A DNA stretch of 64,000 nucleotides from a virus (lineage: Duplodnaviria; Heunggongvirae; Uroviricota; Caudoviricetes). The stretch lies in IMG/VR virus record IMGVR_UViG_3300033070_001123. One strand, 5' to 3'. The translations under genes were made by a program, and so were the position numbers. The notes below the pieces were generated by a model. The model was not told the DNA's origin. It ran no database searches and was given only the letters and a program-made list of their open reading frames with translations. Shown piece after piece: positions 1,491-45,443 of the stretch (position 1 is the first letter of the stretch; every line of letters begins with the position of its first letter).

Positions 1491-4400
1491 TTACACTATT
1501 TCAACGGTATTCGACTGGGTTGCCGTACCTACACTAATGCCGTCAAACGGAATTACTTCGGCTTTCCATCTCTGTCCAGAAGCGGTATTCACAGCCGGAA
1601 CAATTCGGACATTCTGTAGAGATGGAACCTCTTCAAAGGTTGAAGAGCCGCTCAAGGCCCTAAACCATCTAATCGAACTCTGGTCGTTCTGAGTGCTTCC
1701 CTGCTGCTGAGATTCAGCGTCAACATAGGTATATGTCAACTGTAAAGCAGACGCAGAAGAAGCCGTTGGGCTAGGCGATACGGTTACGTTTCTAACAGTA
1801 GGAGGATCATTCTCTACGGAAACAGCAGCGCTTGTTACGGGATTTCCAATGATATTCTGAGAAGCAGGGAGTATTGTAACTTCTAAAACATTACCAATGG
1901 CAATGCCAACAATATTGTTCTTGACTTCGCCAGGTATAATTTCGTTATTGGATATTCCGCCAACCGTAACACCAAGGTCTCCCCTCTTGAATTCGATTCC
2001 ATTGACATACCAAATAATCTGAGAGCTAGTATTGCTGTCGCCATCTTGGAAGTAAGCGAAATCAGCAAACGCTCTTGTCGTTGTTATTACTGTATCTTGT
2101 ACTGTTCCGTCATTCTTCTTGCCCTTAATTGTTATGGCTGTTATGAATGGAGGAGCCTCTATTGCAGTAACAGAAGGAGAGCGAACAATGTCGCTAAACA
2201 AAATTCCATCACTAGCTTTAATTGTTGCATAAACAACATCGCCAACTCTCAATATGCTTTCTCCCTTTTCTCTTGCATATTGCTCATAGCTTGTTCCTGC
2301 GGGAACATTTTCAGGTCTAAACGACAAAGCGTAAACCCATATTGGGTCATTAATGTCATTGATGTTATTCCAGGTTCTTAGATTACGCAAGTATTCTATT
2401 TCAACTCCATTGATATACCAGCGTATAACGGTTTGATCTGTATCCTCGCTTCTCTGATTGATGTCAAAATACTTGTAAGACAAACTAATTGTCTGATAAA
2501 TCGTCAATGTACTTGGGACAACTCTAAAGTCAGTAATAGTCGGCGGTCTCTGCGACAATGGAGGCGGCAAGAAAACATTAGTGTTGTACATATACGCAAC
2601 ACCATCTATTTCAACAGGATTGTAAGAATCCATATTGAGGATTCTAACTCCAAGTCTTAGATTTCCTGCGTTCTCTATCGAAACAGAGAATGGTCCAAGC
2701 TGCTTAGAAGAGAATACGACAAGTCCCTCTTTAGGATAAAGCTCATATCCATCAGAGGCAACAGTCTCTCCGTCCTTATCAAGAATGGTTACTCTTGAAG
2801 TAACGTCCCACTTGCCATATCTAGCCTTCCACATAAAACCATTAACATTGTCAAGAGGCTCATTAAGGGTTGCGTCCTGCTCTTGATTGTAACGAATAGG
2901 TATGAATATCTTTCCGTACCTATCCGAGGCAGGTTGAGCGCCGCTATAGTAGTCAGACCAGTTATAAGACGAACTTGTTGTTGCGCCAACCTGTATGGTA
3001 CTAAGATCTGGTTTATTTGCAGACACCGCAACAGCTATTTGCTGAGGGCTAAAATCGGTTGTCTCTGGCTTCAAGTATATAAAGCTTTCAGTTGGTACAC
3101 TATACTTAATGTTGATAGCAGTTAGAGCAGGAACGCCAGGCGTTGGGATAAGATCATACTCGTTCTCTATATAAGAACTCAATCCGCTCAAAAGTGTAAC
3201 CTTGAACTTGATATATCTAGCATTGACATTTACAAGCGATATTTCCGTATTAGGATTGAACGAGTCGCTATAATCTGAATAGTTGAAGCCGTCTTCACTT
3301 GTTGCCATCCTCCAGCTACCATCTGTATTTGGGTATAGCTCGTAATCAAGAGATACAGTATTAATGATGCTGTTCTTACTCAAATCAATAACGCACTCAT
3401 ACAGTCCCCAACCAATTGAGCCTTCTACTCGACCCAACGAGTTATTCAATATCTCGTCGATATAGGCTGCGTCCAAAATAGTCTGGCTTTGACCGCCGGT
3501 TTGATTAGCAATGGTATCCAAAGAATCCGTATCTGTTCTACTTACCAAAGCTGACAAAGTAACAGGAAAGACAACAGAGAAGTTGTTGATTACAACAGGA
3601 ACTTTGCCAAAACCATCAATCGCTTGTACATCTTGTATTGCAGTATCAAGCGTGTTAATTGAAAGATTCTCTTCATTGTCCGTATTGACATAGATAACCT
3701 TGGCATATCGATCAAAGTCTTCATCAAGCATAATCGCCGCGTTCTTAACAAGAGCGTCGTAGAGAGGTGAAGCTCCAAAAGGAATCTCATTCCTAAGTCT
3801 TGTCAAACCTTTTGCCATATCCTCAAACTCTCCGTTCTCAACATGAACGATAATTTGAGGTATCCATTCGATATCGCTAAAGTAGCTTACCTCAGGGCTT
3901 TCTAGCTGAGGAGTTTGCGGAGGATTAAGATCGAAAACAGGATTATCGCTTTCCTTTAGAGATTGGTCAATGGTTTGATTATTTTCGGAATCTCTTCCTG
4001 GATCATAATCGTTTTGATTGGAGCTTTGTTCAACAGCTTGGCTTCCTTCAACGCTTCGGCATCCTTCAAACTCTGTAATGTCTCCGTTATTAGGAGATCC
4101 TGAGGAGCCTCCCGAACCGCCAGTGTCTGAGCCTGGCGTGTCTGAGCCTGACGAACCATCTGTTGTATTATTCGTTGTTGTGGAGTCTTCATTGTCTTTG
4201 ATATCTATTACTGTTTGACCATAATAAAATTCATCAAGAACTGTTATACGAACCTTGATCGTATAAGGATTTCTAACTTCACCTTCTTTGATAACAAGAG
4301 TGTTGTTACCTTCGTCGCCACCTTCACCGGCAACAGAATCTTGTATACCAAGCTTTTCTTTAATCTCAGATATCTTCTTCAAAATGTCATCGGCTCTTGG

Positions 4401-7400
4401 AAGCATAACAGTAGAAGCTACACCATCATAGATATAGAAATCATTTGAACTAAAGACAACAGGATAAACAAGAGCGTCTCTAAGCGCTTGATTATCAGAT
4501 TGTTGCTGAGATTGATCTCCGCCAGCAGTTTGATCGTTTCCTGCTTGAGAATTCGGGAACAAAAGTATACCCTGAACCAAAACTCTAACTTCTTTGGTAG
4601 GATGCTCTCCTACATCATTAAGCAATTCAATAGAAACAGTTGCAGACTGCTTACCGTCAAGACGGATAGAAGAAGGACTTACTCTTGCTTTGATTTGCAA
4701 AAATCCGGCTGGACGGCCACTTGTAAGTCCTCCGCAAGAATAGACATATCTCCAGTTATCGCTAGAGCAACCAAACGCGGTTTTAGCCGTAGGCATTCTT
4801 TCGCCTTCAGCATATGAGTAAACAGGAGAGCCTTCCGTAATAATATCAAGAAGATTGAGAATTTGAGACTTATCGCTTGTTCCACCCAAGAAATAATGCT
4901 GGTCCAAGATACTAACGCAAGCGCCTCTATACCTAGGAGAAGGAATCTGTCTATAAACATAGTCGTCAAGAGTAATTTCAAGCGTATCCAAATCTATTTC
5001 AAATGCGTCAGTAACAAACTGCAAAGGTTGCTCGCCTGTTTCCTCATTTCTTTCGCCTGGAATAGCTCCACCAACAACGTGAATCTTTGTTTGATTTGCT
5101 TCTGTGAATGCAAATGGAGAAACTCTATTGTAAAGAGCCAAATCTTCATCAACAAACTGATCACTCCAACTCCATGTTAGAGTTTCGAAATCAAACACAA
5201 GAATTCTATCATTAACAGCGTCAATGCTGCCTCTTGTTCCTATCTTTCTTATACCACCAATAATGTATGCTTTGCCATTTGAAACAACGCAAGCGCCCAA
5301 AGCAACTCCGTATGTATTCTGGTCAAACACAGGCATTGGAGCAAGCTCTTCCCAAGTATCATTAACAATATCATATCTTTCAACTGAACTAGAAATTACA
5401 AGCTCTGTTCCATTGGCTGTTATGCCGCCAAAGACATACACATAGCCATAGTCTTGAGCAGCCATATGATAAAATCTTGGCGTATTCATTGACTTTTTGA
5501 CATACCATTTGTCTTCGCCAATATCATACATCTCATTATAAGATAGAATAGACTTACCATTGAGACCGCCAATAGCAAACAGTCTTTCGCCATAGGCATC
5601 AAAATCCCAACTCGTTGTCAAGCAACCTCTTGGATAGTTCATGGACGCCTTTACTGTCCATTCATTAGAATAGGTATCATAAACGTCAAGAGCAGCGCTA
5701 AAGACGTTGCTAATCTCGCCTTCTGGTCTATCCTCAGGGCCTTCTTCTTTAGGTTGAGAAGGATCGTATTTGATAGTAACGCAACAAGTCATGCTGCGCT
5801 CAACATCGCCTCTCTTGTCATAGTTTGTTTCCGCTTGAACTTGAGCTTCAAACGCCGACTCAGGCCCAAAAGGAGCAACAAAGAATGAGGCAAAGCTTCT
5901 AACATTACCATCTGGATTCAATATTGAATCATTAAGCTTCTCTGTAAATACAGTATCATTCTGTAGTATAATCTTTTCTGGATTTTTGCCGCCAATAGTC
6001 AAAAAGACAGGAGTTCCATTAGGAACAGGACGGCCCTTAAATGTTACTTCAAGAACAAACTCATGAACAGCAACTCCGTCGCAAAGAAGTTTCTCGACAG
6101 ACTGACCGCTTCTTCTAATATCAACAATAGATATATCAAGAGGTTCTTTCAAATCAATAGTCGTTGGAGGAATACCTGTCTTGAGATCTCCTCCACCGCG
6201 AAGATACCTTGTCTCTCCATTGAAGTTTACGGTTGTTCTGCCGTCAATAACAGACAGTCCCTTCTTCTTGGCTAAGCCCGGAGGAGCTTCTATACAATCG
6301 CAAGAGTTCGAAGATTGTCCAGAATCAACATTGTCGTCTCCTGAACCAGAATCCGGCTGAGGTCTTCCTATGAACTTGTTTATTCTCAAATAGAAAGTTG
6401 TTGTTCCGCCAGTTTGCGCAAGAGGAATTTGAGCAAAACCTTCGGACTGATTCGCTTCATTAACAACATACTCTTCTATGTCCTCGTCATAAACAATTTC
6501 TAAGTTATCACCATATAATATTTCAAAGCTATCACCAGATTCTATTTCAACTATCTGTCCGTTATCGAGAACAAAAATTGGTCTATTTGCATTCTCTGCG
6601 CATTGTCTGAAGCAATCAGCAGTAGAGCCTCCAGTTACATTTGGGTCATGATAAACAGTGCAACGAACAAGGCTATAACCGTCAGCGTAAAGCGTGTTTA
6701 CATACTGAGGCATGTCCATAAGGAATCTTGAACCAAAACCTCTTCCTCCAAAATTGGCAGGATATATAATGGCTGGTCTTTCTTCAAAGGCACTAAGACC
6801 ATCATAAACAACCGAAGCTTTAATAGCATAAAGTTCAGGCAAATAAATGACGTTACCTGGACATGGTATATAAAGTTCCCATGTAACTCCGCAGGCGGGT
6901 CCGAAGAAGATTCTTCTTGCCATGCCACCTCTTGTGTAAGAGAAAACACCCGGTCCCGCTGGTACATTGTCTGTTGAATAGAATGGCCTATCCTTGGCGT
7001 TTCTTCCCTTTCTTAGATTCCAACGAACGACCTGCTGATCTGTAACAGGAATCTTTCTTGGCCTATCAACATTTGGACTATCTGGATCAATGAGATAGAT
7101 ATTCGCCATCTGCTCAGAAACATCAATACAATTTGATTCTGGCGGCTCAATTGTTGTTTCAACTCTTAAGATATTATCAAAAACTATGTATAACTTCTTA
7201 CGAGCATAATAACCATTGAAACCAACCTTTGTAAACAGCATCACTGCTTGAGGTGTTCTTGGAGCGCGAAGAGGAATGTCTGTATATGTAACTTGTCTTG
7301 TTGTTCCGTCGCTCAATCTTTGCAATCCAACTCTAAGAGGAATTGAAGTTGCAGGAGGTTGAACTGAACGACTTCTTCTAGTTGAGAATGTCGGAACAAA

Positions 7401-10400
7401 TGGCCTTCTTTTACCTGGTTCACCTGTTTGAGAACAAGGGTTTCCGCCAGATGGCTCTTCGTCACATTGAGGGTCAGAAGCTTCAAAAACAGCAACATTA
7501 CAGTTTCCGCCGTCAGGCAAAGCCTGTCCTCTATAAGTAACAACAACCCTAGCCATAAAAGGCCTTGAACGACGAACCCAACAACCGTCAAACTCTGCAA
7601 ACTTATCAGGATCAAAAAGAAGACCACCAGAAGATATGAATTCCTGATCGTCAAGAGGAACAGTCTGCTTGCATAGTATCTTTACTATGTCAGCGCTACC
7701 TGAAGACTGATTATCTGGTAATGGATCGTTTGTTGAACCCCCAGCAGACCTTCTCCTCTTTGACTTCTTTCTAGTTCCAGAGCTTGTTATAGTTCCAAAG
7801 TTTGCAGCGTTATCGCCTATATTGACAAGTTCCATTGCAAATGGATTTCTCATCTCTATGGTTACAGGTAATGATTCAAACTGGAAAACATTCTCAGAAG
7901 GATTGTCTCTATTAGGAATCTCATATGAAACAGTTATTTGAGCAGAAAGAGAGTTTATAGCAGAAAGAGTATCAAGATCAGGCGTCATTCTAAATACGCC
8001 TCTTATAAAGCCGCTTCCAACAACTGTAGAAGAAAGTATATAACAATCATCTGCTTCTGGAGTTAGAGTAGTTGTGTTGATAACTTCGCCAAATACATCT
8101 TCTGCAAGTTGAGCAGAACCAACGCTAGCTTTAGCAGAGAACTTAATCCTACTTGCGTCAGAAATAGGAGCGCCATATTCGTCTGTTATCTCAGCATACA
8201 AAGCAACTCGTTGGTCAAACCAAGCTTCAATCTCTTTCTGGAACTTAACAGGAGCGTCCCACCCAAGACTTATTGCATTTTCATTAACAACTTCATATCT
8301 AAACTGTTTAACCTCAAGCAACGGTATACCATCTTCGTCTGCATCATCAAGAGGAATTGCTGAAACATAAACAGGAGCAGACAGATTGCCGTATCTATCC
8401 GCTGCAACTACTGCATAGTAGTTTACAATCTCATTTTCAAGGTTCCTGTCAACAAACTCAACCTGACTTGGACTTCCGCTAAATACCAACAAAGCAGAAA
8501 AACTAACGCCTTCGTCATTGTTTATGATTGGTGGGCCTGTATCAGACCAATAAACAAAAATCTGCTCAACAGTATCATTATTGATTGCGTTCCATGTCAA
8601 ATACGTTTTATGATTACCCGCTCTAATCTGAACGTTTTCAACAGGCTCAATAAGAGGCGTTGTTATAGCCTTATTTCTATCGTCTCTACTTTTGAAAGCA
8701 GGAATCTTAATAGACAAAATCGGAGAATCAGAATCTAAGCTAAAGTTTCCTATAGCATTTTGCGAATAAATACGGAAGTTGTAAATTCTGTCATGAACAT
8801 AATCAAAAGGAAGCGTTACAACAAAGTCACCTGGTCCTGCGTTTGCTTCATAAACCAAATCACCATCTTCTTCATTTGAGGGATTTTCACCAAAGCCTTC
8901 AAAAACAAGAACAGGTTCGGCAGGAACGCCATTATTGTTTACAGGCGTTTGATAAGAAAACACGCCTGTACCAACTTCTGCTTTTCTTATGATACGAACC
9001 TTACCGCCTTCAAAGTTATAGTCGTCAGGAACAGAGTATCTAACAGCAACAATTCTATCTCCATTATCCAATACTTTTTCAGAAACTCTTTCATAACGAA
9101 CTGCGGCAGACGCAATATAGTTTGCAGATCGAATAGTATCATGAACGCTTATCTCAGTAAGCTTACCAAAGAAATGAGAAGCCTTTCCGCCAAGGTATAT
9201 ATGCATTGGCTCTTGACTGTAGTAACCCAAAGCTGTCAAAGAACCGCTACCAGCTTCAACGCCATTAACATAGAACGTAGCCGTAAGAGCCAAGAAATCA
9301 ACAGTAACAGCAACATGACTCCAAGCATTAGCTGTCAAAGCAATACTAGAAGAAGCAAACGTCAAATCGTCAAAGGTGAAAAACAACGTTCCGTCCGTAT
9401 TTGTTCCAAACCTAAATGACATCTTATCTAAAGAAATGGTCTCTCTAGATATAATACTTCTCTTGGCTGCAAAATTAAACGGGTAAGCCCAAGCCATGAA
9501 AGTGTATTTTGTCTTAATAAACTTACCGTCTTCGTCGTATCCTAAAAGCTTAGTATCAGTTCCGTCAAACCTAATGCCGCTAATGCCACTTGGAACATCG
9601 TTATTATTGAGCCAAACTACATCTTCGTTTGAAGACAAAAGCACAGGGCTATCGCTAAAATCATATGCGAATGTTCCTGTTGACTCATTAAGATGCCAAA
9701 GTCCAATAGTATTAGAATCTCTCTTAACACCTGAACCCGCAATCGTCCTATAAGTAAAACCGCCAACTCCATGAGGATAAATCTTGACTCTAGGAGAAGC
9801 CTTCAAAAATCTACCGCTACTAAAGATTCCGTTTGAATCAAAAGTATATGCGGCGTAGTAATATTGTTCATTCTCTTCAAGCTCGTCGTCAAATGCTCTT
9901 TCAACAAAACCTTCTGTAACTATATCTCCGTCAAGAGGGCCTGTAGGATAAGCTCCAAGCTTTCTAATAATTCGAACACCAGCATATCCGCTTTCTTGAT
10001 CGGCGAAGAAAGCAGAAGCAACGTCTGCTGTATTGTTTGTATTTACCTGATCTGTCTCTACAACCGCAAAGAAATTCAGCTTGATAGGAGTAGACCCAAG
10101 GCTTAGAAGATTATACTTCACTTCGCCGGGATAAGTCGCTTCGAGCCTATCAATCATTCGTCTTGTTATTTCGTGCCTTAGCCCGCTACTATCGTTCCAG
10201 CTAAGAGAACCGCTTTGGTCCATAACAACAGAAACCAATCTATCAGGAAGATTCAAGGCAACCTTATTCGTAGTTGAATCAATATCAACTATTTTGGTTT
10301 GCAAAAATACAGGCTCTAAGTCGTCTATATCAAACTTCTGAACAACCTTTGTCGCAATAGCCGACGCCGGAACAATCAGCTTACAAGCATTCTCATTTAT

Positions 10401-11285
10401 AGAATCTCTAAATGAGTAAAATCTAATAGCGTAGTTTCGAGTACAATCAAGATTCCAAACTCTTAGAGATGAATCATAAGATAGAGCGCAAGAAACGTTG
10501 TAAGGGTCAAAGACTGGCTCTTCATTTTCAGCATAATCCCAAATAAGGTACAAGTTATCGCTTGAACCAGAAACAAACAAAGCCGCTGCGTAATGCAATG
10601 TAAAGCTTATGGAAGAATTTCCAGGCAAAGGGTCCAAAGCAAAATTGTACCAATTATCGTCTTTGATTTCTTCTATTGTTGTCTTGTAACTATATATTGG
10701 TATCGCGTCGCCAGGAGATATGTTATCATTGACTTCGTACATTCTAAAATGCAAAGTCAAAAACTTACTCTGATACTCTATAGAATCAGGCATTGTTTCA
10801 GAAGAACTTATAATCACAGAGTCTATATAAGACTGCTGTGTTTTAGGCTTTATAGATAGCTCAAACTTCTTGTTATCTTTGATAACAATTGTTGTAGAGA
10901 CCCAAGACCATGAGCCTGGGGTTACTGTGGCGGTATTATCAGAACTCGAAAAGCCGTCAACAAGTAGTTCATAAGAAAACTGAGAAACATCTGTTTGAGT
11001 TCTCACTCTGATAAAGACATTATACTTTCCAGCTTTCGCTGCCGTAACAGGATAAGACAAGATAGGGTAGGAAGGCGTTCCAATAGCCTGAGAAATAGCC
11101 ATAGAACCTGAACCATAAGAGCCATCCACAACAACGTCAAATACAGCCGATGGATCGCCTTGTTCAAGCCTTGAAAAATTAGAAGCGTCAAACGCAGCAA
11201 AACCGTCTTCAGGCACTAAGAAAGAGGCCGAAGAATCGGTCTTGCCAACGGTTCGAATAAAAACAGAAGCTTTGGTGAGTATCAT
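1491..11285 (-). CDS. Giant multidomain virion/adhesin protein, 3264 aa (CBM-like, split VWA, FN3-like, LamG, Kelch propeller, C-terminal Ig-like repeats)
   Basis: VVMDQSGS (D356); GLWHLNE..WSHVAVT..FYVNG..FFGKLTE (LamG); six GG-type Kelch repeats with YD..W..MxxPR; GASPLYDAL/NTDNEEN/IANQTGG; three IxWxxxG repeats; ATGA overlap with upstream gene. Confidence 0.85.
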   Translation of the reverse strand: MILTKASVFIRTVGKTDSSASFLVPEDGFAAFDASNFSRLEQGDPSAVFDVVVDGSYGSGSMAISQAIGTPSYPILSYPVTAAKAGKYNVFIRVRTQTDVSQFSYELLVDGFSSSDNTATVTPGSWSWVSTTIVIKDNKKFELSIKPKTQQSYIDSVIISSSETMPDSIEYQSKFLTLHFRMYEVNDNISPGDAIPIYSYKTTIEEIKDDNWYNFALDPLPGNSSISFTLHYAAALFVSGSSDNLYLIWDYAENEEPVFDPYNVSCALSYDSSLRVWNLDCTRNYAIRFYSFRDSINENACKLIVPASAIATKVVQKFDIDDLEPVFLQTKIVDIDSTTNKVALNLPDRLVSVVMDQSGSLSWNDSSGLRHEITRRMIDRLEATYPGEVKYNLLSLGSTPIKLNFFAVVETDQVNTNNTADVASAFFADQESGYAGVRIIRKLGAYPTGPLDGDIVTEGFVERAFDDELEENEQYYYAAYTFDSNGIFSSGRFLKASPRVKIYPHGVGGFTYRTIAGSGVKRDSNTIGLWHLNESTGTFAYDFSDSPVLLSSNEDVVWLNNNDVPSGISGIRFDGTDTKLLGYDEDGKFIKTKYTFMAWAYPFNFAAKRSIISRETISLDKMSFRFGTNTDGTLFFTFDDLTFASSSIALTANAWSHVAVTVDFLALTATFYVNGVEAGSGSLTALGYYSQEPMHIYLGGKASHFFGKLTEISVHDTIRSANYIASAAVRYERVSEKVLDNGDRIVAVRYSVPDDYNFEGGKVRIIRKAEVGTGVFSYQTPVNNNGVPAEPVLVFEGFGENPSNEEDGDLVYEANAGPGDFVVTLPFDYVHDRIYNFRIYSQNAIGNFSLDSDSPILSIKIPAFKSRDDRNKAITTPLIEPVENVQIRAGNHKTYLTWNAINNDTVEQIFVYWSDTGPPIINNDEGVSFSALLVFSGSPSQVEFVDRNLENEIVNYYAVVAADRYGNLSAPVYVSAIPLDDADEDGIPLLEVKQFRYEVVNENAISLGWDAPVKFQKEIEAWFDQRVALYAEITDEYGAPISDASRIKFSAKASVGSAQLAEDVFGEVINTTTLTPEADDCYILSSTVVGSGFIRGVFRMTPDLDTLSAINSLSAQITVSYEIPNRDNPSENVFQFESLPVTIEMRNPFAMELVNIGDNAANFGTITSSGTRKKSKRRRSAGGSTNDPLPDNQSSGSADIVKILCKQTVPLDDQEFISSGGLLFDPDKFAEFDGCWVRRSRPFMARVVVTYRGQALPDGGNCNVAVFEASDPQCDEEPSGGNPCSQTGEPGKRRPFVPTFSTRRSRSVQPPATSIPLRVGLQRLSDGTTRQVTYTDIPLRAPRTPQAVMLFTKVGFNGYYARKKLYIVFDNILRVETTIEPPESNCIDVSEQMANIYLIDPDSPNVDRPRKIPVTDQQVVRWNLRKGRNAKDRPFYSTDNVPAGPGVFSYTRGGMARRIFFGPACGVTWELYIPCPGNVIYLPELYAIKASVVYDGLSAFEERPAIIYPANFGGRGFGSRFLMDMPQYVNTLYADGYSLVRCTVYHDPNVTGGSTADCFRQCAENANRPIFVLDNGQIVEIESGDSFEILYGDNLEIVYDEDIEEYVVNEANQSEGFAQIPLAQTGGTTTFYLRINKFIGRPQPDSGSGDDNVDSGQSSNSCDCIEAPPGLAKKKGLSVIDGRTTVNFNGETRYLRGGGDLKTGIPPTTIDLKEPLDISIVDIRRSGQSVEKLLCDGVAVHEFVLEVTFKGRPVPNGTPVFLTIGGKNPEKIILQNDTVFTEKLNDSILNPDGNVRSFASFFVAPFGPESAFEAQVQAETNYDKRGDVERSMTCCVTIKYDPSQPKEEGPEDRPEGEISNVFSAALDVYDTYSNEWTVKASMNYPRGCLTTSWDFDAYGERLFAIGGLNGKSILSYNEMYDIGEDKWYVKKSMNTPRFYHMAAQDYGYVYVFGGITANGTELVISSSVERYDIVNDTWEELAPMPVFDQNTYGVALGACVVSNGKAYIIGGIRKIGTRGSIDAVNDRILVFDFETLTWSWSDQFVDEDLALYNRVSPFAFTEANQTKIHVVGGAIPGERNEETGEQPLQFVTDAFEIDLDTLEITLDDYVYRQIPSPRYRGACVSILDQHYFLGGTSDKSQILNLLDIITEGSPVYSYAEGERMPTAKTAFGCSSDNWRYVYSCGGLTSGRPAGFLQIKARVSPSSIRLDGKQSATVSIELLNDVGEHPTKEVRVLVQGILLFPNSQAGNDQTAGGDQSQQQSDNQALRDALVYPVVFSSNDFYIYDGVASTVMLPRADDILKKISEIKEKLGIQDSVAGEGGDEGNNTLVIKEGEVRNPYTIKVRITVLDEFYYGQTVIDIKDNEDSTTTNNTTDGSSGSDTPGSDTGGSGGSSGSPNNGDITEFEGCRSVEGSQAVEQSSNQNDYDPGRDSENNQTIDQSLKESDNPVFDLNPPQTPQLESPEVSYFSDIEWIPQIIVHVENGEFEDMAKGLTRLRNEIPFGASPLYDALVKNAAIMLDEDFDRYAKVIYVNTDNEENLSINTLDTAIQDVQAIDGFGKVPVVINNFSVVFPVTLSALVSRTDTDSLDTIANQTGGQSQTILDAAYIDEILNNSLGRVEGSIGWGLYECVIDLSKNSIINTVSLDYELYPNTDGSWRMATSEDGFNYSDYSDSFNPNTEISLVNVNARYIKFKVTLLSGLSSYIENEYDLIPTPGVPALTAINIKYSVPTESFIYLKPETTDFSPQQIAVAVSANKPDLSTIQVGATTSSSYNWSDYYSGAQPASDRYGKIFIPIRYNQEQDATLNEPLDNVNGFMWKARYGKWDVTSRVTILDKDGETVASDGYELYPKEGLVVFSSKQLGPFSVSIENAGNLRLGVRILNMDSYNPVEIDGVAYMYNTNVFLPPPLSQRPPTITDFRVVPSTLTIYQTISLSYKYFDINQRSEDTDQTVIRWYINGVEIEYLRNLRTWNNINDINDPIWVYALSFRPENVPAGTSYEQYAREKGESILRVGDVVYATIKASDGILFSDIVRSPSVTAIEAPPFITAITIKGKKNDGTVQDTVITTTRAFADFAYFQDGDSNTSSQIIWYVNGIEFKRGDLGVTVGGISNNEIIPGEVKNNIVGIAIGNVLEVTILPASQNIIGNPVTSAAVSVENDPPTVRNVTVSPSPTASSASALQLTYTYVDAESQQQGSTQNDQSSIRWFRALSGSSTFEEVPSLQNVRIVPAVNTASGQRWKAEVIPFDGISVGTATQSNTVEIV
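4123..4150. repeat. In-frame direct repeat with 15-bp period in a Gly/Ser/Asp/Thr linker
   Basis: GTGTCTGAGCCTG at 4123 and 4138, encoding GSDTP-GSDTG. Confidence 0.7.
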
Positions 11286-12958
11286 GTATATATGCTTATT
11301 TGTTTCTTAAAGACATTATCGTACCAATCTTTAACTTCAATCAGTACGTCACTCCAGAACGAGGTTGTCGGAGCATCCCAAGCCCCTTCCCAAACGCCAA
11401 AATTCCTAATGCCTATTGATATTGCATACTTAATAGTTTCGATCCAAACCTTTCTAAACTGTACTGTATTTGTATCGTTTGAATTGTAGGGAGAGGAAAC
11501 AGAACTCTGTACGGAACCGTCATTTCGGACGCTCCAAGCCGAGAACCAAGGACACATCGGGTTATCCAAACCTCCTGCAACAACGCCATTATAGAGTCCC
11601 CTTCTCATATGCTGCATTCTAAACCAATTCCAGTCTGAAAAATCAGCAGGATAATAGTTGGAAAAATCATAAGTCATGTAGTTTCTAAAAGTTGACAATC
11701 TTGGATCTATTGCCGAAAAACCTTGATTAAAGAAATTGTTAAGGTCTTCTGAAACATACAAAGAGAAATCAGACTGATCAAAACAATACATACTAGCAGA
11801 TTGCATCCAGTTAGTAAACGTAGGCATTGTATCAAAAATGGCGTAACCATTCATCGCTCTTAGACTTGTATTCTGAACGCCAATTCTTGTTGTTTTATGA
11901 TATTTTGTATACAGACTCTGTTGCGCATTTGAAAATATCATGTTTGGAAAATGCTGCAAAGCAGGCTCGCAAGACGCCTTCCATATGCAATAATCTCTAG
12001 AAGTATGATACAAAACAGCAGCCCTCCAAAAGCCTTCAAAAGCCTTTGGAGTTCTTACATATCCATCGGTAGCGAAATCAAGACAAGGCCAAGAACCTCC
12101 GTCTCTATGATTCGCCTGACTCCAAAACTGCTGAAAAGTTCTTTGCCCATCAACTAAAAAATCTGTATCCGACGAACGTGAATCTTGTAAAGAACAGCTT
12201 ATATATCCAATATCATTAAGACCAAACTGATCTACACAAGCAAACTGAGCATGAGTTCCTGATATTGGATAAACAGCGACTCCTGGATAAAAATCCAATC
12301 CAGTTGATTCAACATTGAAATTGCAAAAATATGGATCTTTATAACCTATATTAGCAAGGCCAAGTTTAAGTTTTGTCCAAAACTCCGTATCCCAACTACT
12401 GTTATTATCTATACCGTTCTTTGACCACATACCATAGTTCAATCCGTTCAATATGGAAGGTCTCTCTTCCGGTCTATTCATAAATAAGAAAGTATTGGGT
12501 CCGTCTGGAGTTCCATTAATATCAGGAGGAAATCCAGGCGGATATCCCCATGTAAAGTTTCTGATTGAATACTCAAAATCAGTCCTTCCGACAGACTGCA
12601 TTTGAGAATTCATATAAGGAATAACCTCTTGACAAATTTGATTAACAAAATAGTCAACATTCCTTACGGCAAGCCCTGAATCTCTCGGATTGTACCTAAT
12701 ATGAGGCATAACCCAAGGATGGCTCCACAAAGATTGATTTTGAACATCTGGTCCTTGCAAAGTTCCATTGAATACGCTTTTCTGAAAAGCTTGTTCAAAA
12801 AGGAAATATGGTTCTCTATCAAACTGAGGACGGCCAATTGGTAAGCTTAGATCAGGAACAAAATCGGGAAGTTCAGGCCAATTCCTTTTTGACTGAAAAC
12901 CAGAACCAACCCTAACTATTTGTCCTTTTCCGCTAGGTTTTCTTCCTATATATTCCAT
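11282..12958 (-). CDS. Putative glycoside-hydrolase-like (TIM-barrel) virion protein, 558 aa; original start probably 13020
   Basis: Long aromatic-rich ORF; FNVES, PALQHFPNMIFSN, PMCPW, GIRNFGVW resemble GH barrel strands; only weak AAGAG before 12958. Confidence 0.6.
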   Translation of the reverse strand: MEYIGRKPSGKGQIVRVGSGFQSKRNWPELPDFVPDLSLPIGRPQFDREPYFLFEQAFQKSVFNGTLQGPDVQNQSLWSHPWVMPHIRYNPRDSGLAVRNVDYFVNQICQEVIPYMNSQMQSVGRTDFEYSIRNFTWGYPPGFPPDINGTPDGPNTFLFMNRPEERPSILNGLNYGMWSKNGIDNNSSWDTEFWTKLKLGLANIGYKDPYFCNFNVESTGLDFYPGVAVYPISGTHAQFACVDQFGLNDIGYISCSLQDSRSSDTDFLVDGQRTFQQFWSQANHRDGGSWPCLDFATDGYVRTPKAFEGFWRAAVLYHTSRDYCIWKASCEPALQHFPNMIFSNAQQSLYTKYHKTTRIGVQNTSLRAMNGYAIFDTMPTFTNWMQSASMYCFDQSDFSLYVSEDLNNFFNQGFSAIDPRLSTFRNYMTYDFSNYYPADFSDWNWFRMQHMRRGLYNGVVAGGLDNPMCPWFSAWSVRNDGSVQSSVSSPYNSNDTNTVQFRKVWIETIKYAISIGIRNFGVWEGAWDAPTTSFWSDVLIEVKDWYDNVFKKQISIYT

Positions 12959-12969
12959 GTTTGACTCTT

Positions 12970-12993
12970 TAGTTACTCTGTAGTTACTCTGTA
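12970..12993. repeat. Perfect 11-bp tandem duplication (TAGTTACTCTG x2 + TA)
   Basis: Read directly at 12970-12980 and 12981-12991. Confidence 0.95.
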
Positions 12994-13020
12994 ATACCAG
13001 GGATCTCCGCAGCCATTCAT
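12973..13020 (-). CDS. 15-aa mini-ORF MNGCGDPWYYRVTTE, apparently the frameshifted N-terminus of the 558-aa gene
   Basis: GGGGAG RBS (13025-13030) just before ATG 13020; stop lies inside the duplicated 11-mer. Confidence 0.6.
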   Translation of the reverse strand: MNGCGDPWYYRVTTE

Positions 13021-13032
13021 TTTACTCCCCTA

Positions 13033-16000
13033 TTAGTTTATTGTTGAGCCTGTAGCAAGTTTTCTAATGAAGCTCTCGGAAGCAAGTTTGAAGTAGGCAT
13101 TTCCGAAGAGCCATATGTCTGAATTCACTATCAAAACCTTATGTATAGTTGGAAGTTTTGAAGTTGTATGAACTACAAAATCATCGGCATAAACAACGTA
13201 ACGACCGTCAGATAGTCCTATTAGCGACTTGGTAAAATCATAATCTATGTCATTAACACCAATAGCAGCAGAGTCTTCAATATCTCCAAGAATATCAAGA
13301 AGTTGCAACGAAAGGTTTCCGCTATAGAAAGAACCTCCATCTTGGAAAAGCCCCTTCGTTGTTCCGAACAGCATTTGAGAACGGTGCTTTTGAAGCTTAT
13401 TGACAATTTGATTGTTTAGAACACCAACCCTATTCCAGTTAAATCCATCAGTTGAATAATAGCTCTCTCCGCTATCAGAAACAGCCATTGCAGCGTCAGG
13501 GGAAGACATAACATTAACAGGTAAAGAAGTTGAAACAACCTTTGTCCAGGTTGACGAAGAGTTTTTCCTTGCGTAAACACCGTCTTCTGCTCCAATAACA
13601 AGGTTACTTCCAAATATGCTTACAAAACTATGCAGCTTTTTTGGCAAACCAGAAGCAGTATCCTTAGTTATCTTCTGCGTATTTACGTCAAAGAAGTACA
13701 ACTTAGATTCATCAAGGATGTAGACTGTATTTTGATACTTTCTGATATCCTTAACTAAAAGGGTTCTATCAGATTTGAAAGAAAGTCTATTTACTTCCTT
13801 TGTTACTGTACTTATTGTTAAAACTCCTCCATAACCACCAACAAAAACAGAACCAAGCTCAGGAACGCTTAGTACAGCATTAGCGCATGGAAGGGACAGA
13901 TTTCTATTACTAAGGTCTGTAAATACTTCATAATCAACGGTTGAGTTTTCCTTATCATACCAATCAGAATTACATGGAATGCAATATTTAGCTTGATATG
14001 GGGGAGCAACGGAATCTTGCAAACCTGGACTGATTCTCTCACCTGCAAGTCCACCAGATAGTATGTTAGAATGATGAACTTGGCTCAAGTGAGACGGAGC
14101 GCCAGAGTTTACCCATTCAAAGGTATCTTCTATAGTCCAGTGCGGCATTCCAATGTTTACCAAAGAAGGATTGACTATATCAAGCTCAACTCTATTGTAC
14201 TTAGCCAGAGCCTTAGGAAGTTCAATGATTCCGTCAATAGAATTTGCTACTGCAACAATTTCAAAACCTGAATAGTCTTCTGGGAACTGATCGCCAACGC
14301 CACCAGAGGGGGTATTCTTATATCTTTGAACACCAAATCCTTCTATCTGGTCTCTCTTTTCAGTTCCTCCCAAAGAAACAATACCATACTTTCCGTACTT
14401 CGCAATGAAAGAAGAACTGCCTGAAAGGTCGCCTCCAACACCAAACGATATTGGCGGCGGCGGGTCAACGTCTATGTTGTATGTAAAGTTCCTTTGTTCT
14501 ATAAACCTTGAAACAGGATACCAATTTTGCTGCATATCTCCTGTTGTTGCTACAGCATCATTATGAGTATAAACAGTTGCCCACCAAATAACTCCCTGGC
14601 ATCCGCTCATATATAATGATCTGTATGTAAAGTCCGATATATTTGGGTTTATATATCCACTTGCGCGAAGATATCCATTCCATATGAAAGGGCAAAGAGG
14701 CTTATTGGCTATTCTTGCAATATCATGAAAATTCCTAAGAGACATTAAGTAAAAGATTCTTTGCTGTATAGGATCTGCTTGCTTTCTGCCTGTTTGAGAA
14801 TAATACAAATTAGCATCGTAATTGGCTGTCCTGTCCCAAAGATACATTGCTGGTGAAATGAAGTCAAACGCCTGCATCCATTCCTTCCAGTAATAGACTT
14901 CCAAATCTCTTAGAGAATTTGTTGCGTCAGGATTCTGAGAACCAAAATCCAAGCCGTCTATAGACCATATACCACGAGTCGGAACGGCTCCAAAAAAGCC
15001 TATCTTTTGAACATTTGGCCTTAACTGCCTAATAACATCATTCAGTTCATTTATCCAAACAATCCAACGTTCAGCCCATTTCTTCTGCAAATAATCATCT
15101 TGCTGTTCAAGAGTCTTACCTGAGGACCACCCTGGCTCTGATTGATCGACCGCCCAAATCCACCAATCTCTCAAGGTTCTCGCAGCCAAACCCGAAGAAG
15201 GCGAAGAACGAATAAGAGTCGAGCTTGCATACTGGCTCATCATAATAAGACCGTTTCCAACCTGAACGGCTACTTGATTATTTGAGGTATTATAAGCTCT
15301 TAGTTCAAAGTTATGAAAAATGCTTCCAGTAAACGTAGCTGGTATATACGGAACTCCACCAGACCTACCAAAACCAGTTATATTCTGATATAGGGTTGCT
15401 TTTGCTTTATCAAGCTTATCCTGTTGAAACAACCAAAGTAAAGAATCACCAGATCCTGAAATAAAATCATTTGTAATACCAGAAACAGGAACCCAAGAAT
15501 GCTGACTTCCGCCTGGCAAAGTCCAATCATAATAAGCATCAAACTGATACAGTCCTATCATTTCCTGTATATCTGGAACATTTGAACTGTAGGTTATATG
15601 AATATCTTTTGGCAAACAAACTTTTCTACCTCCAAGTAAAGCGTCTCCAACTTGACAGATCGAAGAGCCTCCGCCGAGAGCAAATATAGAAGAATATGTT
15701 ACAAACGACTCTTTCCAACTTAGCTTGTTAGGAAGAAGACATTCTCTTCTAACAATATAGTCAATCGTTACAGGAATCGCCTGATGCACGCTTTCTATAT
15801 ACAGAACATAATCCTCATATGCTGTGTTTGTTGTTGAAGACGGTCCATAATCGGCATACCAAGAAGCGATTGGCATGTATACCCAAGGGTCCAAACCAGA
15901 AAGCAACAAATCAAGGAACCAATCTCTTCCGCCTTTAGAATAGTCTTTGGTTAAAAACTCTGACCTATCAACATATCCAGGAGCAACATAGAGATATAAT

Positions 16001-17427
16001 GAGTTTTCATTTCTTGCACCAGAAGCCATAGAAACAGACGGATAAGAAGCTCTCCATCCTTGAACATACTGTGTAACATAAGAACTTGTAATATTCTCTG
16101 GCAAACCAAGAAGAGACAATCCGCTAGCAGACCTCAAGCCGCCCTCAAAGAAGTTATCAGTTTCAAACTGATCATGAAGAACTTCGTCTTCTTGGAAATC
16201 AACTGCTGGCTCGGTAAAATCACCAAGATTAACCTTGCTCAATGTATTATCTGCGGCAAAAATAACTCTAAACTGGTTTTCTTCTTCCCATTCCTTAATT
16301 TCAGCAAGAGAGTTTCTTAGAGACTGAGGAAGATTAGTAAAGAATGCAGGATTCTCTCCTCGGTCATTATTCCCCCAACCGGCAATATTCAAAAACATGA
16401 CAGCTTGATAGCCATATGTTTTAAGCAAAGAAACATCAACCGTCGAATCAAGAAGTTCTCTCCATCCGCTTACTGTTTGAGGATTGATATATTCTTGTCC
16501 AGGCAGAGGAAGACGACCCTGCAAACTTTGCTTATCTTGCGTACTAAAAAGGTAATATCTTCTCTGATTGTCTCTTGCGGTAAAATATGCCTTCGGAGCA
16601 TTAGGCCCTGCAAGATTAATACCATATATCCTGCCACTAATTCTTGGTCCAACATTAGAATCTGAATGGTTAGCCCAGAACCAAACAAAGTAAGGCTCAT
16701 AAGATCTCAGAGCGGCAGTCCTTCTATAAGAAGCGCTGCCATTATATGAAGTGAAAGAGTTGTACTCTTCATATCTTAGCCAAACTTTCCAGGTTCTAGT
16801 TTCACCCGCCTGAAACTTATCAACAATACCTTTATCCGTATTGACATTTCCCTCTATTCGGAAATAAGCCTTAAGAGTTGAAGCGTCAAAATCTCCATAA
16901 ATCTTGAATGGATACGAATAGTTAGTCGAAACGCTTGTCATCTGGCAAGCGGCGCTTGCTAAACCTGTTTTCCAGTTTTCAATAGCCAAGCAAGGAGCAA
17001 ACCAATTAACGCCATATATAGCGTTTGGATTTCCAAACTTGTCTGTTGATGGATTCTTGACTGCCGGATAAGCAACAGCCTCAGGTCTCATGCCGTATGA
17101 ATCATGATTCATATGATTGAGAACGTGCCTATAAAAAGAGTTCGCTCCAGCGCCAACCCAATTGGGATGATACATTCCTGAATTAATGCGAACAAATGGA
17201 GCAGACTGCTGCACCTGTGTCTTGTTCTTGACTGTAATGGTTAGATTTACACCTCTTGATTCAACAAGCTCTCTATTAACAGTGACTTCCCAGGTTGCTC
17301 CATTATTTACAAGCGGAGTACCATTGGAACTATCTCTTACAATAGAAGAGTCATAATCATTTGGGTCAAACCATACGAGTTTCTGGCTATTAGGGCTACC
17401 AGCTTCTCTTGGCGAAAATAGTGACAT
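13033..17427 (-). CDS. Tail-associated polysaccharide-degrading/receptor-binding protein, 1464 aa (GH-like barrels incl. GH56/hyaluronidase-like; C-terminal beta-propeller)
   Basis: IFHNFELR..IRQLRPN..IGFFG..DFISPAMYL..PLCPFIW..GCQGVIWW; C-terminal VIGAEDGVY, YSTDGFNW (Asp-box-like), FGTTKGLF. Confidence 0.6.
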   Translation of the reverse strand: MSLFSPREAGSPNSQKLVWFDPNDYDSSIVRDSSNGTPLVNNGATWEVTVNRELVESRGVNLTITVKNKTQVQQSAPFVRINSGMYHPNWVGAGANSFYRHVLNHMNHDSYGMRPEAVAYPAVKNPSTDKFGNPNAIYGVNWFAPCLAIENWKTGLASAACQMTSVSTNYSYPFKIYGDFDASTLKAYFRIEGNVNTDKGIVDKFQAGETRTWKVWLRYEEYNSFTSYNGSASYRRTAALRSYEPYFVWFWANHSDSNVGPRISGRIYGINLAGPNAPKAYFTARDNQRRYYLFSTQDKQSLQGRLPLPGQEYINPQTVSGWRELLDSTVDVSLLKTYGYQAVMFLNIAGWGNNDRGENPAFFTNLPQSLRNSLAEIKEWEEENQFRVIFAADNTLSKVNLGDFTEPAVDFQEDEVLHDQFETDNFFEGGLRSASGLSLLGLPENITSSYVTQYVQGWRASYPSVSMASGARNENSLYLYVAPGYVDRSEFLTKDYSKGGRDWFLDLLLSGLDPWVYMPIASWYADYGPSSTTNTAYEDYVLYIESVHQAIPVTIDYIVRRECLLPNKLSWKESFVTYSSIFALGGGSSICQVGDALLGGRKVCLPKDIHITYSSNVPDIQEMIGLYQFDAYYDWTLPGGSQHSWVPVSGITNDFISGSGDSLLWLFQQDKLDKAKATLYQNITGFGRSGGVPYIPATFTGSIFHNFELRAYNTSNNQVAVQVGNGLIMMSQYASSTLIRSSPSSGLAARTLRDWWIWAVDQSEPGWSSGKTLEQQDDYLQKKWAERWIVWINELNDVIRQLRPNVQKIGFFGAVPTRGIWSIDGLDFGSQNPDATNSLRDLEVYYWKEWMQAFDFISPAMYLWDRTANYDANLYYSQTGRKQADPIQQRIFYLMSLRNFHDIARIANKPLCPFIWNGYLRASGYINPNISDFTYRSLYMSGCQGVIWWATVYTHNDAVATTGDMQQNWYPVSRFIEQRNFTYNIDVDPPPPISFGVGGDLSGSSSFIAKYGKYGIVSLGGTEKRDQIEGFGVQRYKNTPSGGVGDQFPEDYSGFEIVAVANSIDGIIELPKALAKYNRVELDIVNPSLVNIGMPHWTIEDTFEWVNSGAPSHLSQVHHSNILSGGLAGERISPGLQDSVAPPYQAKYCIPCNSDWYDKENSTVDYEVFTDLSNRNLSLPCANAVLSVPELGSVFVGGYGGVLTISTVTKEVNRLSFKSDRTLLVKDIRKYQNTVYILDESKLYFFDVNTQKITKDTASGLPKKLHSFVSIFGSNLVIGAEDGVYARKNSSSTWTKVVSTSLPVNVMSSPDAAMAVSDSGESYYSTDGFNWNRVGVLNNQIVNKLQKHRSQMLFGTTKGLFQDGGSFYSGNLSLQLLDILGDIEDSAAIGVNDIDYDFTKSLIGLSDGRYVVYADDFVVHTTSKLPTIHKVLIVNSDIWLFGNAYFKLASESFIRKLATGSTIN

Positions 17428-17429
17428 AC

Positions 17430-20400
17430 TTAGCCTCCGCCTCCATCATTTGTTCCTGAAGTAGTATCGTCGTTAGACACAGAAGATCCACCACCAATCG
17501 AACCTCCGCCTCCATTAGAGCCAAGAGATCCTGAGCCTCCAATAAGAGACTCTGGCAAGATACCGTCTGTGTTTAGCTCGCTACCAAAAGAACCGATGTT
17601 TGAAGACGTAGAGTTATCTGCGTCTCTTGCCCAATCCTTGTAAGAACCAAAGCTACCAAAAACAGCCTTGTTAACCAACTCGGTTGGATTCAAAAGGATA
17701 ACCCTAAAGGCAGGAACAGTAAACGGCTGCTCGCTCGTTGTACCGTCAGCATTCGTTACCTGAACAACTCTTGCGCCCTCATAAATCTGGGACAAAAATC
17801 TCTCTATACCATACAAGGTTGAAACAACATTATCCTTTGAAAAGCCCGTAAGAGCGGTTATCTGACCGTCTGAATTTCTTTCAACCGCAAGCAATTTTGT
17901 TCTACTATCTTCAAACTTAGCCTTAGCCAAATCTGCTCCAACCTTATGAGCATTTCTGTCATTATATGATGGCAAAACAAGAGAGGCTATGGCAACTGCC
18001 GGCTTCTCCGAAACGCTCATCTTATTCATTCTCTTACCGTCAATAAAAAGAGAAACAGCAGATATGTAGTTTGTGTCAGCCCAGCCGCCATACTTTGCCT
18101 TATACTTCTTGTATTGATTTGCAACAGTAATAACTGAATTAAGCTTTTGCTTAACATCAAAGCACACAAACTTCCTGAGTCTATCTTGGCTCGTACTAAA
18201 TCTATATCCTATGAACTGTTTTTCGCCATTTACATAAACTGTTGGTATGACTTCGCTTTCGTTTTCCCAATGCAAAGACAACTTACCAGGCCTATCTGAT
18301 ATGAAAAGCTTATCCTCAGAACCAACAAAAAGCCTGTTGTCTATAACATCAAGAGATGTCGCTGGCAATATTTCGTCATTTACTCTAAGTTGAGAGAAAG
18401 CCTGCTCAAAAGTAACAGTAAGGTCTGTATAAATGTCGCTATCAGAAATAGTTGCCATTAAGCCAGAATCAGTTGTTATGTAAATTCTATTATTCCATAT
18501 AACCATCTTCCTTGATATCGAAGCGTTTTCCATAACGCCAATACGCTCAAAGAACTGAGAACTAGGGGACTTCCTCCATAGCATGTAATCCGTTATCGCA
18601 AAGAGATAGCCATTCGAAGCAACAAGAGCGAATATTGGTCTCTGCTCTGTAAACTCATCGCTAAAAGTCCAAGCAACGCCGCTATTGTAAGTTTCGAAAA
18701 TACCAAGTTCATTGCTAACAATGATTCTTGATCTATCTTCGTCTCTAAGCATGGCATACGCTTCAGTGCTTCTTGGGCCAAAAATAGGAGTCTGCTGGAA
18801 AAAGAATGAACCTTGTCCAATATCCCTTCTTAACTTATATACGCCTAAATCGCTACTACAAAAAACATTTCCGTCTTCGTCTTCGCAAATGTCTCGAATA
18901 ATCTTCGCATTTTCTGCGCCAGCAACTTCAGTCCAAATACTAAAATCACCAGCCTGACCGCCTCGACCAAACAGAATGCCTCTATTTGTTGCCGCAAAAT
19001 ACGTCTGGTACTTCTCCGAGTAGAAGAACCTAAGAACAGGAGTTATTGTTTCAAATCTTCTGTCCCAAGAAACACCAAAATTCTCGCTTGTATAAATACC
19101 ATCACTCGTTCCTGCAATCAAAACATCAGAATCGCCATGAGCCTGCATAATACAATAGAAAACAATTCCGTCTCCAAGGTCTTCTTCTCCATCAACAGGA
19201 GCATAGCGATAACCGTCGTCAATAGTTAGAGTGCTTATTTGAACAGGCTCAAGTCTTTCCTTAATTCTTCCACCATGATTTATAGAAGGAATCTGAACCT
19301 TCTCAAAAACTCCAACACCAACCTGCTGAGCGCTAACGCCGTTTATTCTACTCTTAGGAAGAATATTCTGAACTTCTTCAAGATTTGAAAACCTAACTTC
19401 AACAGTTGGAGGTTCAGAGAAAGGAAAGGTTTGTTCCGTTAACTCAAAACCTGTAGCAGCAAGACGAATCTCAAAAGTTAAAGACCCCTCAGCCTTGTTG
19501 AGAGAAAACAAAACGCCATAGCTTGACGCTTCTTCTCCATTTAGATAAACCGAATACACTGTTGTTTCTGAAATATCAGTTTCAGTAGTATGTGTTTGAT
19601 TGTCCGAAGTCTGCCAGTCAGAAACGGTAATAATGTCGCTAAGGTTTATTCTTCTGTCGTTTTCTTCGTCTATATATTCATGCTTATGAAGTGCAAGTCT
19701 ATTTATTGTTTCTGTTCTTACAGGATCTTCTAGCTTAGCAATATTTCTAACATTAGAAAGATCAAACTCCGAAACACCATTTTCGGTTATAACCTTGCCA
19801 AGCAGAATTGCATTACTAACTTGTATATTACTTTCTGTAACAAACAAATCAGCTTCGTTCCTAAACTTACGAACAATGTAATACGCTTTACCCGTTTTTG
19901 TTAGAGCATTGGCGTCAACATAATAAGTTACAGCAGGCAAAACTGTAGCTATAAGCTGGAAAGAAAACTTGTTACCTATAGATCTGTATATCTCATAACC
20001 GTCAAATTGCCCTGCTGTTGGCTGCCAAGTTAGTTGAACATTTTGTCCATTCAAAGAATAAGATAAAGCCGCTGGAGGGTTCAATGTTGTTGAAGACGTT
20101 GGCCTCAAAGTTATAAGAGCATAATTGATATAACTATCATCAATTGGGTTCAAAGATTCTTGACCAAACAAATCAACTGTTGTTACAAAGTAGATATAGG
20201 TTGTTTCGTTTTCGACCTCATAATCTGTATACGAAAATGTTGTTGCAGAAACGGTCTCAATCAGAGAAAAATCACCAGGCTCAATCGAGACGGTATCGAG
20301 CGCTCTATAAACTCGATAGCCCGCAACCGCTTCAGTTGGTGCGGCGCTCCATTGAATTGTATTTTGCCTATCCGCAGCGAAACCTATCTGTTGTCTTGGA

Positions 20401-44356: not shown

Positions 44357-45443
44357 GGTAAATATTCTCCATTATCTTTCCAAAAGCATCGGCAGCAACC
44401 CTATATGTAAAGTTATTATGAACATAGTCATATGCCCTATCTGCTTTTCCCATAGTCTCGTCTTGATTTGAATAAACCCTTCTCATAGCGTCCTGAACTG
44501 ATTGAATCGTTATTCGGGGCCACTTCTTATTGGAAAACTGAACGATGTTATCCATATTAGAATGAAGCATAAAACCCGAAGGCTCGATAAGGGTGCATCT
44601 GTCCTCTGAAGCATAGTCCTGACATCCTGAAAAATTTGTTATAATGATTGGCACTTTGATAGCCATACATTGCAATCCAGGAAGGCCAAATCCTTCGCCT
44701 AAAGTTGGCATAACTAAACAGTTGGCTGACTTATAGAAGGACGGTAAATAAGAGTCGTCGAATATTCTTCTTTCAAACAAAATGGGAGCGAATTCCTTCT
44801 TTAAGCCAAGAGTTGTCTTAATTTTTGCAACTTCTTGCGTTGCAAGCTGAGTCTTGTCTGTTTTTATGAGAAGCTGAACATTGTCAGAAGACGAAAACTC
44901 TCTACAAAAAGCCTCGATAAGCTCCTGCCATCCTTTTCTCTTTTTCCATGTCCCAACAAACAAGAAAGTATACTTATCATGTTTGTCAAGAGGTATTACA
45001 TCTTTATGCCAGTTTTCACTATTGAAAGTATGAGGTAGGTAAAACATAGGTTTGTAAATACCGGCATGAGCAAATATCTTGTAATTAAACTGCGACGGAC
45101 AAGCAATAGCGTCAAGCCTATTAAGAAGTTCAACCCATTTTTCTGGAGGCTCAAACGTCTCAAAAGTTGCAAAACCAATAGACTTATAAGTTCTTGGTAT
45201 CCTCATTTGCATAGGAGGAATACAGTGGTAAACCTGCGTTGCTCTAGGATTTGGCAACTTTCTAAACAAAGGATCAAGTATAGACAATGACTTTTTACTG
45301 AACGATTGCTTTGAAAGGCTACCATTCAGAGGAACAACCCTAATATCATACTGCTTAGTTTCAAGGAGAGCAGAAACAACGTCAAACGCTGCTTGCCCAT
45401 ATCCTGTTTCGTTGAAAAACGCTATGTACTCAATTGGGGTCAT
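44346..45443 (-). CDS. GT4 glycosyltransferase, 365 aa, embedded in the tail operon
   Basis: TGYG, FATFET, YTFLFVGTWKKRKG, PTLGEGFGLPGLQCMA; overlaps both neighbours. Confidence 0.92.
   Translation of the reverse strand: MTPIEYIAFFNETGYGQAAFDVVSALLETKQYDIRVVPLNGSLSKQSFSKKSLSILDPLFRKLPNPRATQVYHCIPPMQMRIPRTYKSIGFATFETFEPPEKWVELLNRLDAIACPSQFNYKIFAHAGIYKPMFYLPHTFNSENWHKDVIPLDKHDKYTFLFVGTWKKRKGWQELIEAFCREFSSSDNVQLLIKTDKTQLATQEVAKIKTTLGLKKEFAPILFERRIFDDSYLPSFYKSANCLVMPTLGEGFGLPGLQCMAIKVPIIITNFSGCQDYASEDRCTLIEPSGFMLHSNMDNIVQFSNKKWPRITIQSVQDAMRRVYSNQDETMGKADRAYDYVHNNFTYRVAADAFGKIMENIYRVR

Follow-up and report, generated by a model that had tools for sequence, protein, structure and literature searches.

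A strain-private 11-bp tandem duplication at the start of a glycosidase-like gene in the tail region of an uncultured jumbo phage, probably a one-off slippage event

Introduction

Tandem duplications that arise sporadically through replication slippage at microhomology form a general class of mutation, and a perfect tandem pair can in turn shrink via slippage. In phages, the contingency loci described in the literature consulted are homopolymer tracts, for which reversible rates have been measured (bioRxiv 10.1101/2025.10.21.683753). They include the poly-A tracts of agt in T2/T4 (Gomez, Barrick, Waters, bioRxiv 10.1101/2025.10.21.683753) and, as cited in the same preprint, the poly-G tracts in receptor-binding genes of Fletchervirus (Sorensen et al. 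2021). High-frequency reversible switching has been placed above about 1e-5 (PMC7911514). It has also been reported that efficient termination-reinitiation coupling requires overlaps or very short gaps, and that re-initiation falls steeply with distance, being partial and pair-specific at 14 nt and almost nil by about 20 nt (PMC10666635).

Here, we analysed a 64,000-nucleotide stretch of viral DNA, hereafter the window, in which a sequence-only reading had described an 11-bp tandem doubling ahead of an open reading frame of 558 aa. Like the T2/T4 agt and Fletchervirus loci, this locus combines a slippage-type frameshifting indel with a phage tail-region gene. However, those loci hold homopolymer runs in both states, whereas here the unit is 11 bp long and the state encoding the long form lacks a perfect repeat. 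Furthermore, extra copies here never restore the frame, and no variation within a strain was seen among the consensus contigs compared. The locus also resembles a sporadic slippage duplication at microhomology, with a perfect head-to-tail copy beside an imperfect neighbour that is private to a lineage and revertible by contraction. In contrast to a plain slippage duplication, it lies a short way ahead of a second in-frame start, the ancestral one, which would buffer its effect. As in termination-reinitiation coupling, a short ORF, which arises from the frameshift, ends shortly before a start with a weak ribosome site, but the gap is 14 nt rather than the overlap or very short gap of efficiently coupled pairs.

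Results and Discussion

Genomic setting of the locus

The window comes from a jumbo phage that has not been cultured and represents its tail region. Matches on the same strand include a tape measure (E 2e-6) and a minor tail protein (E 5e-13), and the neighbours include giant FN3/LamG/Kelch/Ig proteins, which locates the gene in the tail cluster. Its relatives were found on contigs of 248-506 kb, and most window genes have Shine-Dalgarno sites. From gene position alone, the 558-aa protein may be part of the virion. The features of the locus are collected in Table 1. The 1464-aa upstream neighbour is common to close relatives, and BLASTP of the 558-aa protein against the 1464-aa neighbours gave no similarity. 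The downstream 3264-aa gene is probably translationally coupled to the core ORF, because the two overlap by 4 nt. Two glycosyltransferase genes (PHROG) also lie in the tail cluster, at 768-1478 and 44346-45443, a hint of glycosylated virion proteins.

Table 1. Features of the locus around 13,035-12,958 of the window
Feature	Coordinates	Strand	Remarks
Upstream 1464-aa gene	13033..17427	-	stop codon 13035-13033; weak beta-propeller matches at C-terminal end
GGGGAG, strong Shine-Dalgarno-like site	13025..13030	-	4 nt ahead of ATG 13020; -7.8 kcal/mol
Start of 17-aa extension, turned into a 15-codon mini-ORF by the frameshift in the window strain	12973..13020	-	TAA 12975-12973
11-bp unit, copy 1	12983..12993	-	from repeat search and sequence inspection
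11-bp unit, copy 2, the strain-specific duplication	12972..12982	-	carries in-frame TAA
Imperfect third copy, 8/11	12961..12971	-	pre-existing; likely slippage template; includes weak site AAAGAG 12970-12965
Core ORF, 558 aa, intact	11282..12958	-	begins at ancestral Met; TIM barrel predicted, glycoside-hydrolase type
Downstream 3264-aa gene, LamG and Kelch	1491..11285	-	4-nt overlap with core ORF stop

Several relatives differ from the window around this gene. In the strain L027, 109 differences per 4395 nt upstream stand beside 174 per 1677 nt inside the core gene, a mosaic that suggests inter-strain recombination near the gene junction. A homologue at 34% identity in a distant phage (L034, 3854-6777) has its own slightly longer N-terminus, and two genes of ~485 aa lie between it and the upstream giant, an arrangement which suggests that genes come and go at the junction upstream of the core gene. 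In the JGI contigs L029 and L009, giant neighbours are called split (L029 7725-8526, 254 + 2997 aa versus 3264) or short (L009 7725-8510, 261 aa; L009 1-1591, ~900 aa versus 1531), which could reflect either real breaks or assembly errors. The sister strain L008/L009 carries an insertion of ~60 nt (~1493-1551, window ~17454-17466) near the end of the 1531-aa gene, which is called at 1556 aa in L008 and has a Gly/Asp-rich low-complexity tail that is variable in the strain L007 as well.

The duplication and its origin

Both perfect copies of the unit were found where the sequence-only reading had placed them, and together they form a perfect repeat of 24 bp in total (13-bp overlap register), which TRF detects at 2.7 copies with a score of 53. 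Perfect tandem units of at least 11 bp occurred in none of 30 shuffles (0/30), and the window holds only one other perfect long tandem, of three 15-bp units (37193-37237). The latter lies in frame at the C-terminal end of a 2390-aa gene. The degenerate third copy was found as well; since 8/11 similarity at an 11-bp period is reached by 120 window positions, this copy alone is unremarkable. The ATG of the 558-aa ORF (12958) lies 62 nt past ATG 13020, and removal of one copy in silico indeed yielded the stop-free 575-aa frame that had been proposed.

An assembly or sequencing artefact has a negligible probability. Besides the window, the JGI assembly 3300020576 (100% match over 13.5 kb) and the Logan assembly SRR32380197 (100% match over 7.8 kb) both carry two copies, and a perfect repeat of 24 bp does not reach the length of a 31-mer, let alone that of a read. 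The assembly error that the sequence-only reading had allowed for is thus effectively excluded. Two copies were present in all three inspected records of the window haplotype (3/3), which may stem from few samples, and the exact 558-aa protein is recorded from several contigs. Over 21.7 kb aligned with L021, a relative at 91% identity, the duplication is the sole indel.

All other strains differ from the window by at least 82 of 1677 nt, and two copies were seen in none of them. A sister strain with one copy is represented in SRR32380194. The nearest one-copy strain lies at this distance of 82/1677 nt (~5%), from which the window is separated by 66 synonymous and 13 non-synonymous codons. Within the 90% cluster, 8 of the 12 members are called as 575 aa with a 17-aa extension, and L007 is a ninth with an open extension, although its gene call picks the downstream Met. 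A 575-aa version of the window haplotype was absent among these 12 members, the nearest being 13 aa away. The tree of about nine close haplotypes contains one copy-number gain. Because one copy is usual in the relatives and because of this placement on the tree, the duplication is a derived change on the branch of the window strain.

No three-copy or further two-copy allele occurred among the strains compared, and a scan of viral records for the doubled unit found no record. A degenerate pattern of the extension matched solely in unrelated viruses in the viral scans, a search for short fragments bearing the extension found none, and metagenome scans gave nothing beyond one contig already known. 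The records compared are consensus contigs, from which assemblers discard rare variants, and the nearest virus record stops at window position 13424, just before the repeat site. A slippage origin, as proposed earlier, is judged likely. A recent one-off mutation, which the sequence-only reading had named as its own alternative, gives the best fit, as two copies are confined to one haplotype.

A switch or a single event

The sequence-only reading had proposed a candidate phase-variable switch. As a contingency locus of this kind, gain and loss of the unit would toggle a tail enzyme at high frequency and diversify host range. In line with this, the one- and two-copy states are both natural, and a perfect tandem pair is able to contract by slippage. 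Furthermore, the gene sits in the tail-region cluster, and phage contingency loci are known (bioRxiv 10.1101/2025.10.21.683753). However, copy number follows the haplotype and never varies inside it in the inspected records, and with one gain on the tree, no recurrent independent change was found across strains. In addition, a perfect repeat does not exist in both states, as one-copy relatives have only an imperfect pair matching at 6-9 of 11 positions. In three relatives the imperfect pair of the one-copy state (8/11) has drifted further, to 6-7/11, so its slipperiness is not being preserved.

The duplicated unit carries an in-frame stop, so three or four copies would stay out of frame and no frame cycling is expected. 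Only reversion is favoured, because the one-copy state lacks a perfect repeat and any number above one meets the same stop. Contraction from two copies to one should therefore be favoured, and expansion from one to two should be rare. That the phage contingency loci in the literature consulted are homopolymer tracts also speaks against toggling, which we consider very improbable; if true, it would represent a phage contingency locus with a long, non-homopolymer unit on a tail-region enzyme. The same low probability applies to a two-start dial, in which 11-bp gain and loss would swap long and short isoforms in populations, with the leader attaching or dosing the tail glycosidase. This would amount to a non-homopolymer contingency locus that alters the isoform and not the presence of the protein.

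The 17-aa extension

In every one-copy haplotype the extension comprises 51 nt and can be read through in frame without a stop, which neither of the other two frames allows. Variable sites make up 9 of 32 first and second positions in the extension versus 264 of the body's 466 third positions (p=0.003; p=0.003-0.006). Because it is conserved in the strains retaining it, the extension is probably functional. The conserved upstream peptide expected from the sequence-only reading is present in part of the family: it is carried, as a 17-aa extension and together with a single copy of the unit, by most close relatives (87-98% protein identity), whereas the homologues at 58-60% identity begin at the downstream Met. 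The extension is thus specific to one clade of these phages.

It may also be argued that the upstream ATG is minor even in one-copy strains, in which case the 51 nt would be a regulatory spacer and the duplication fully neutral. The pN/pS of 0.42 in the extension versus 0.13 in the body agrees with this, as do its non-significant third-position bias (8/17 variable sites, p=0.17), the ancestral start downstream and the gene call of L007, which picks the downstream Met despite an open extension. Nevertheless, the length of exactly 51 nt with an open frame in all one-copy haplotypes and stops in the others, together with the joint retention of the strong site and ATG, speaks against this, and neither a conserved RNA structure nor a promoter was seen in the spacer. 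A neutral spacer is accordingly an improbable reading.

The start of the extension had also been likened to that of a hub protein, the gene at 52776. The two starts (52776-52756 for this 1194-aa gene) have 13 of 15 nt in common, but the motif is missing in the homologue from G002, a related phage, and the pattern was picked post hoc, so that the likeness is probably due to chance. The gene had no PHROG match, and its identity as a hub was not confirmed.

A predicted TIM barrel of glycosidase type

The AlphaFold model of the 558-aa protein built with distant homologues had a pTM of 0.73 and a mean pLDDT of 64, while the model built on close relatives only had a pLDDT of 39. In the former, residues ~42-554 form a predicted (beta/alpha)8 barrel. 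Since the barrel begins after residue ~42, the 558-aa form would retain it whole. Confidence in the model is low for residues 1-25, so that the extension would add length to a leader that lies outside the barrel and is probably flexible. The best structural alignment (VIA-align) was to the GH164 beta-mannosidase 6T5O (Z 10.5, 316 residues aligned, rmsd 6.0). Alignments cover 240-330 residues, and the top rows are mostly glycosidases with many near-tied Z values, in keeping with the earlier description of the protein as glycosidase-like. Foldseek agrees weakly (E about 0.01 at best), and a search of the viral fold library gave nothing significant.

At the sequence level, no family was found in Pfam, PHROG or the PDB, and the annotated phages gave no match. 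A PDB profile search returned a weak match to a putative beta-glucosidase (E=0.021), and Atlas feature matches to GHL10/GHL13 (0.82-0.83) serve as leads only. Glu217, just after the barrel strand 211-215, does not vary among 14 sequences that reach down to 21% identity; no second catalytic residue was identified. The predicted barrel with an invariant Glu after a strand is shared with TIM-barrel glycoside hydrolases (GH164, GH5, GH18, GH56-like). Unlike the named GH families, however, the protein shows only 5-9% identity and near-tied Z values across many families and matches nothing in Pfam or PHROG. The barrel alignments and Glu217 make 'glycosidase-like' a fair label for the predicted fold, with family and substrate not assignable. 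Distant members of this unnamed TIM-barrel family (P0016-P0021) were found at 21-34% identity, and P0018 bears a TAT-like signal, which suggests secreted bacterial relatives. Possibly, the 558-aa protein belongs to an undescribed glycosidase family.

The downstream start and expression of the core gene

The homologues at 58-60% identity begin at the counterpart of Met 12958, placed 11-12 nt past the upstream stop, and Met 12958 is therefore the ancestral start. A close relative with a 90% identical protein (L006) lacks an upstream ATG, has a stop in frame and is left with the weak AAAGAG site alone. Its spacer of 57 nt (5944-6000) is homologous but decayed, with 52-61% identity versus 83-87% across the body of the gene. 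The ORF of L006 has nevertheless stayed intact, and purifying selection acts on it (24 non-synonymous as against 33 synonymous changes private to it; neutral share of 0.74; p=3e-7), with a non-synonymous proportion slightly above that of other strains (p=0.09). With L006, the extension is missing from a close relative for a second time and independently; this strain either lost the extension or branched off before its gain (tree support 60/61). Whichever its history, the downstream start works alone in L006. Contrary to the earlier view, the duplication does not disconnect the gene from its only start, as the downstream Met is the ancestral start and L006 uses it alone.

The strong upstream site noted before was confirmed by the calculated strengths of -7.8 kcal/mol for the upstream and -2.4 kcal/mol for the downstream start. 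The former falls within the range of other window genes, and other window genes also have sites as weak as the latter. The weak AAAGAG site is present in nearly all close relatives including L006; one has AAAGAA.

Combined, we consider it probable, with moderate confidence, that a one-off slippage duplication, now the dominant allele of one strain, drops a dispensable leader and likely lowers the level of the 558-aa enzyme. Slippage between the 11-bp unit and its 8/11 neighbour would have created the second copy. The length change throws the 51-nt extension out of frame, with the resulting mini-ORF ending 14 nt before the ancestral ATG, while this start and the whole predicted barrel remain, which suffice in L006. 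Ribosomes from the strong site would translate a 15-aa peptide. Production of the 558-aa protein, now lacking the leader, would continue from the weak site or by way of partial re-initiation, although probably at a reduced level. Because re-initiation becomes much less efficient as the distance grows, lowered rather than full expression of this form is expected. The gene is probably not switched off in the window strain, although the 14-nt gap and the weak site could yield little protein. On the window's branch, the signal of purifying selection may be older than the duplication. Losing one copy could restore the long form as an ordinary one-way reversion, with no evolved switch.

A stronger effect, which we regard as unlikely, would follow if the strong upstream site were the sole effective start. 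The duplication would then largely silence a dispensable accessory enzyme, coupling into the 3264-aa gene would perhaps be reduced, and the strain may persist by drift or host-favoured loss. The difference in site strength, the conservation of the extension over seven or more one-copy haplotypes and the steep distance dependence of re-initiation (PMC10666635) are consistent with such a near-null allele. On the other hand, the gene of L006 is intact and selected with the weak site alone and a 57-nt gap, and equally weak sites occur at other window genes. Moreover, coupling of the overlapped 3264-aa gene would suffer, and the ORF shows no decay.

Conclusions

As a slippage duplication private to one strain, the locus is clear-cut but ordinary, and it concerns a 17-aa leader that close relatives appear to have gained and lost twice, with the ancestral start persisting throughout. 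Frameshifts of this kind should be treated with caution and not be taken for knockouts or switches. The unnamed glycosidase-like family may merit more attention than the repeat.
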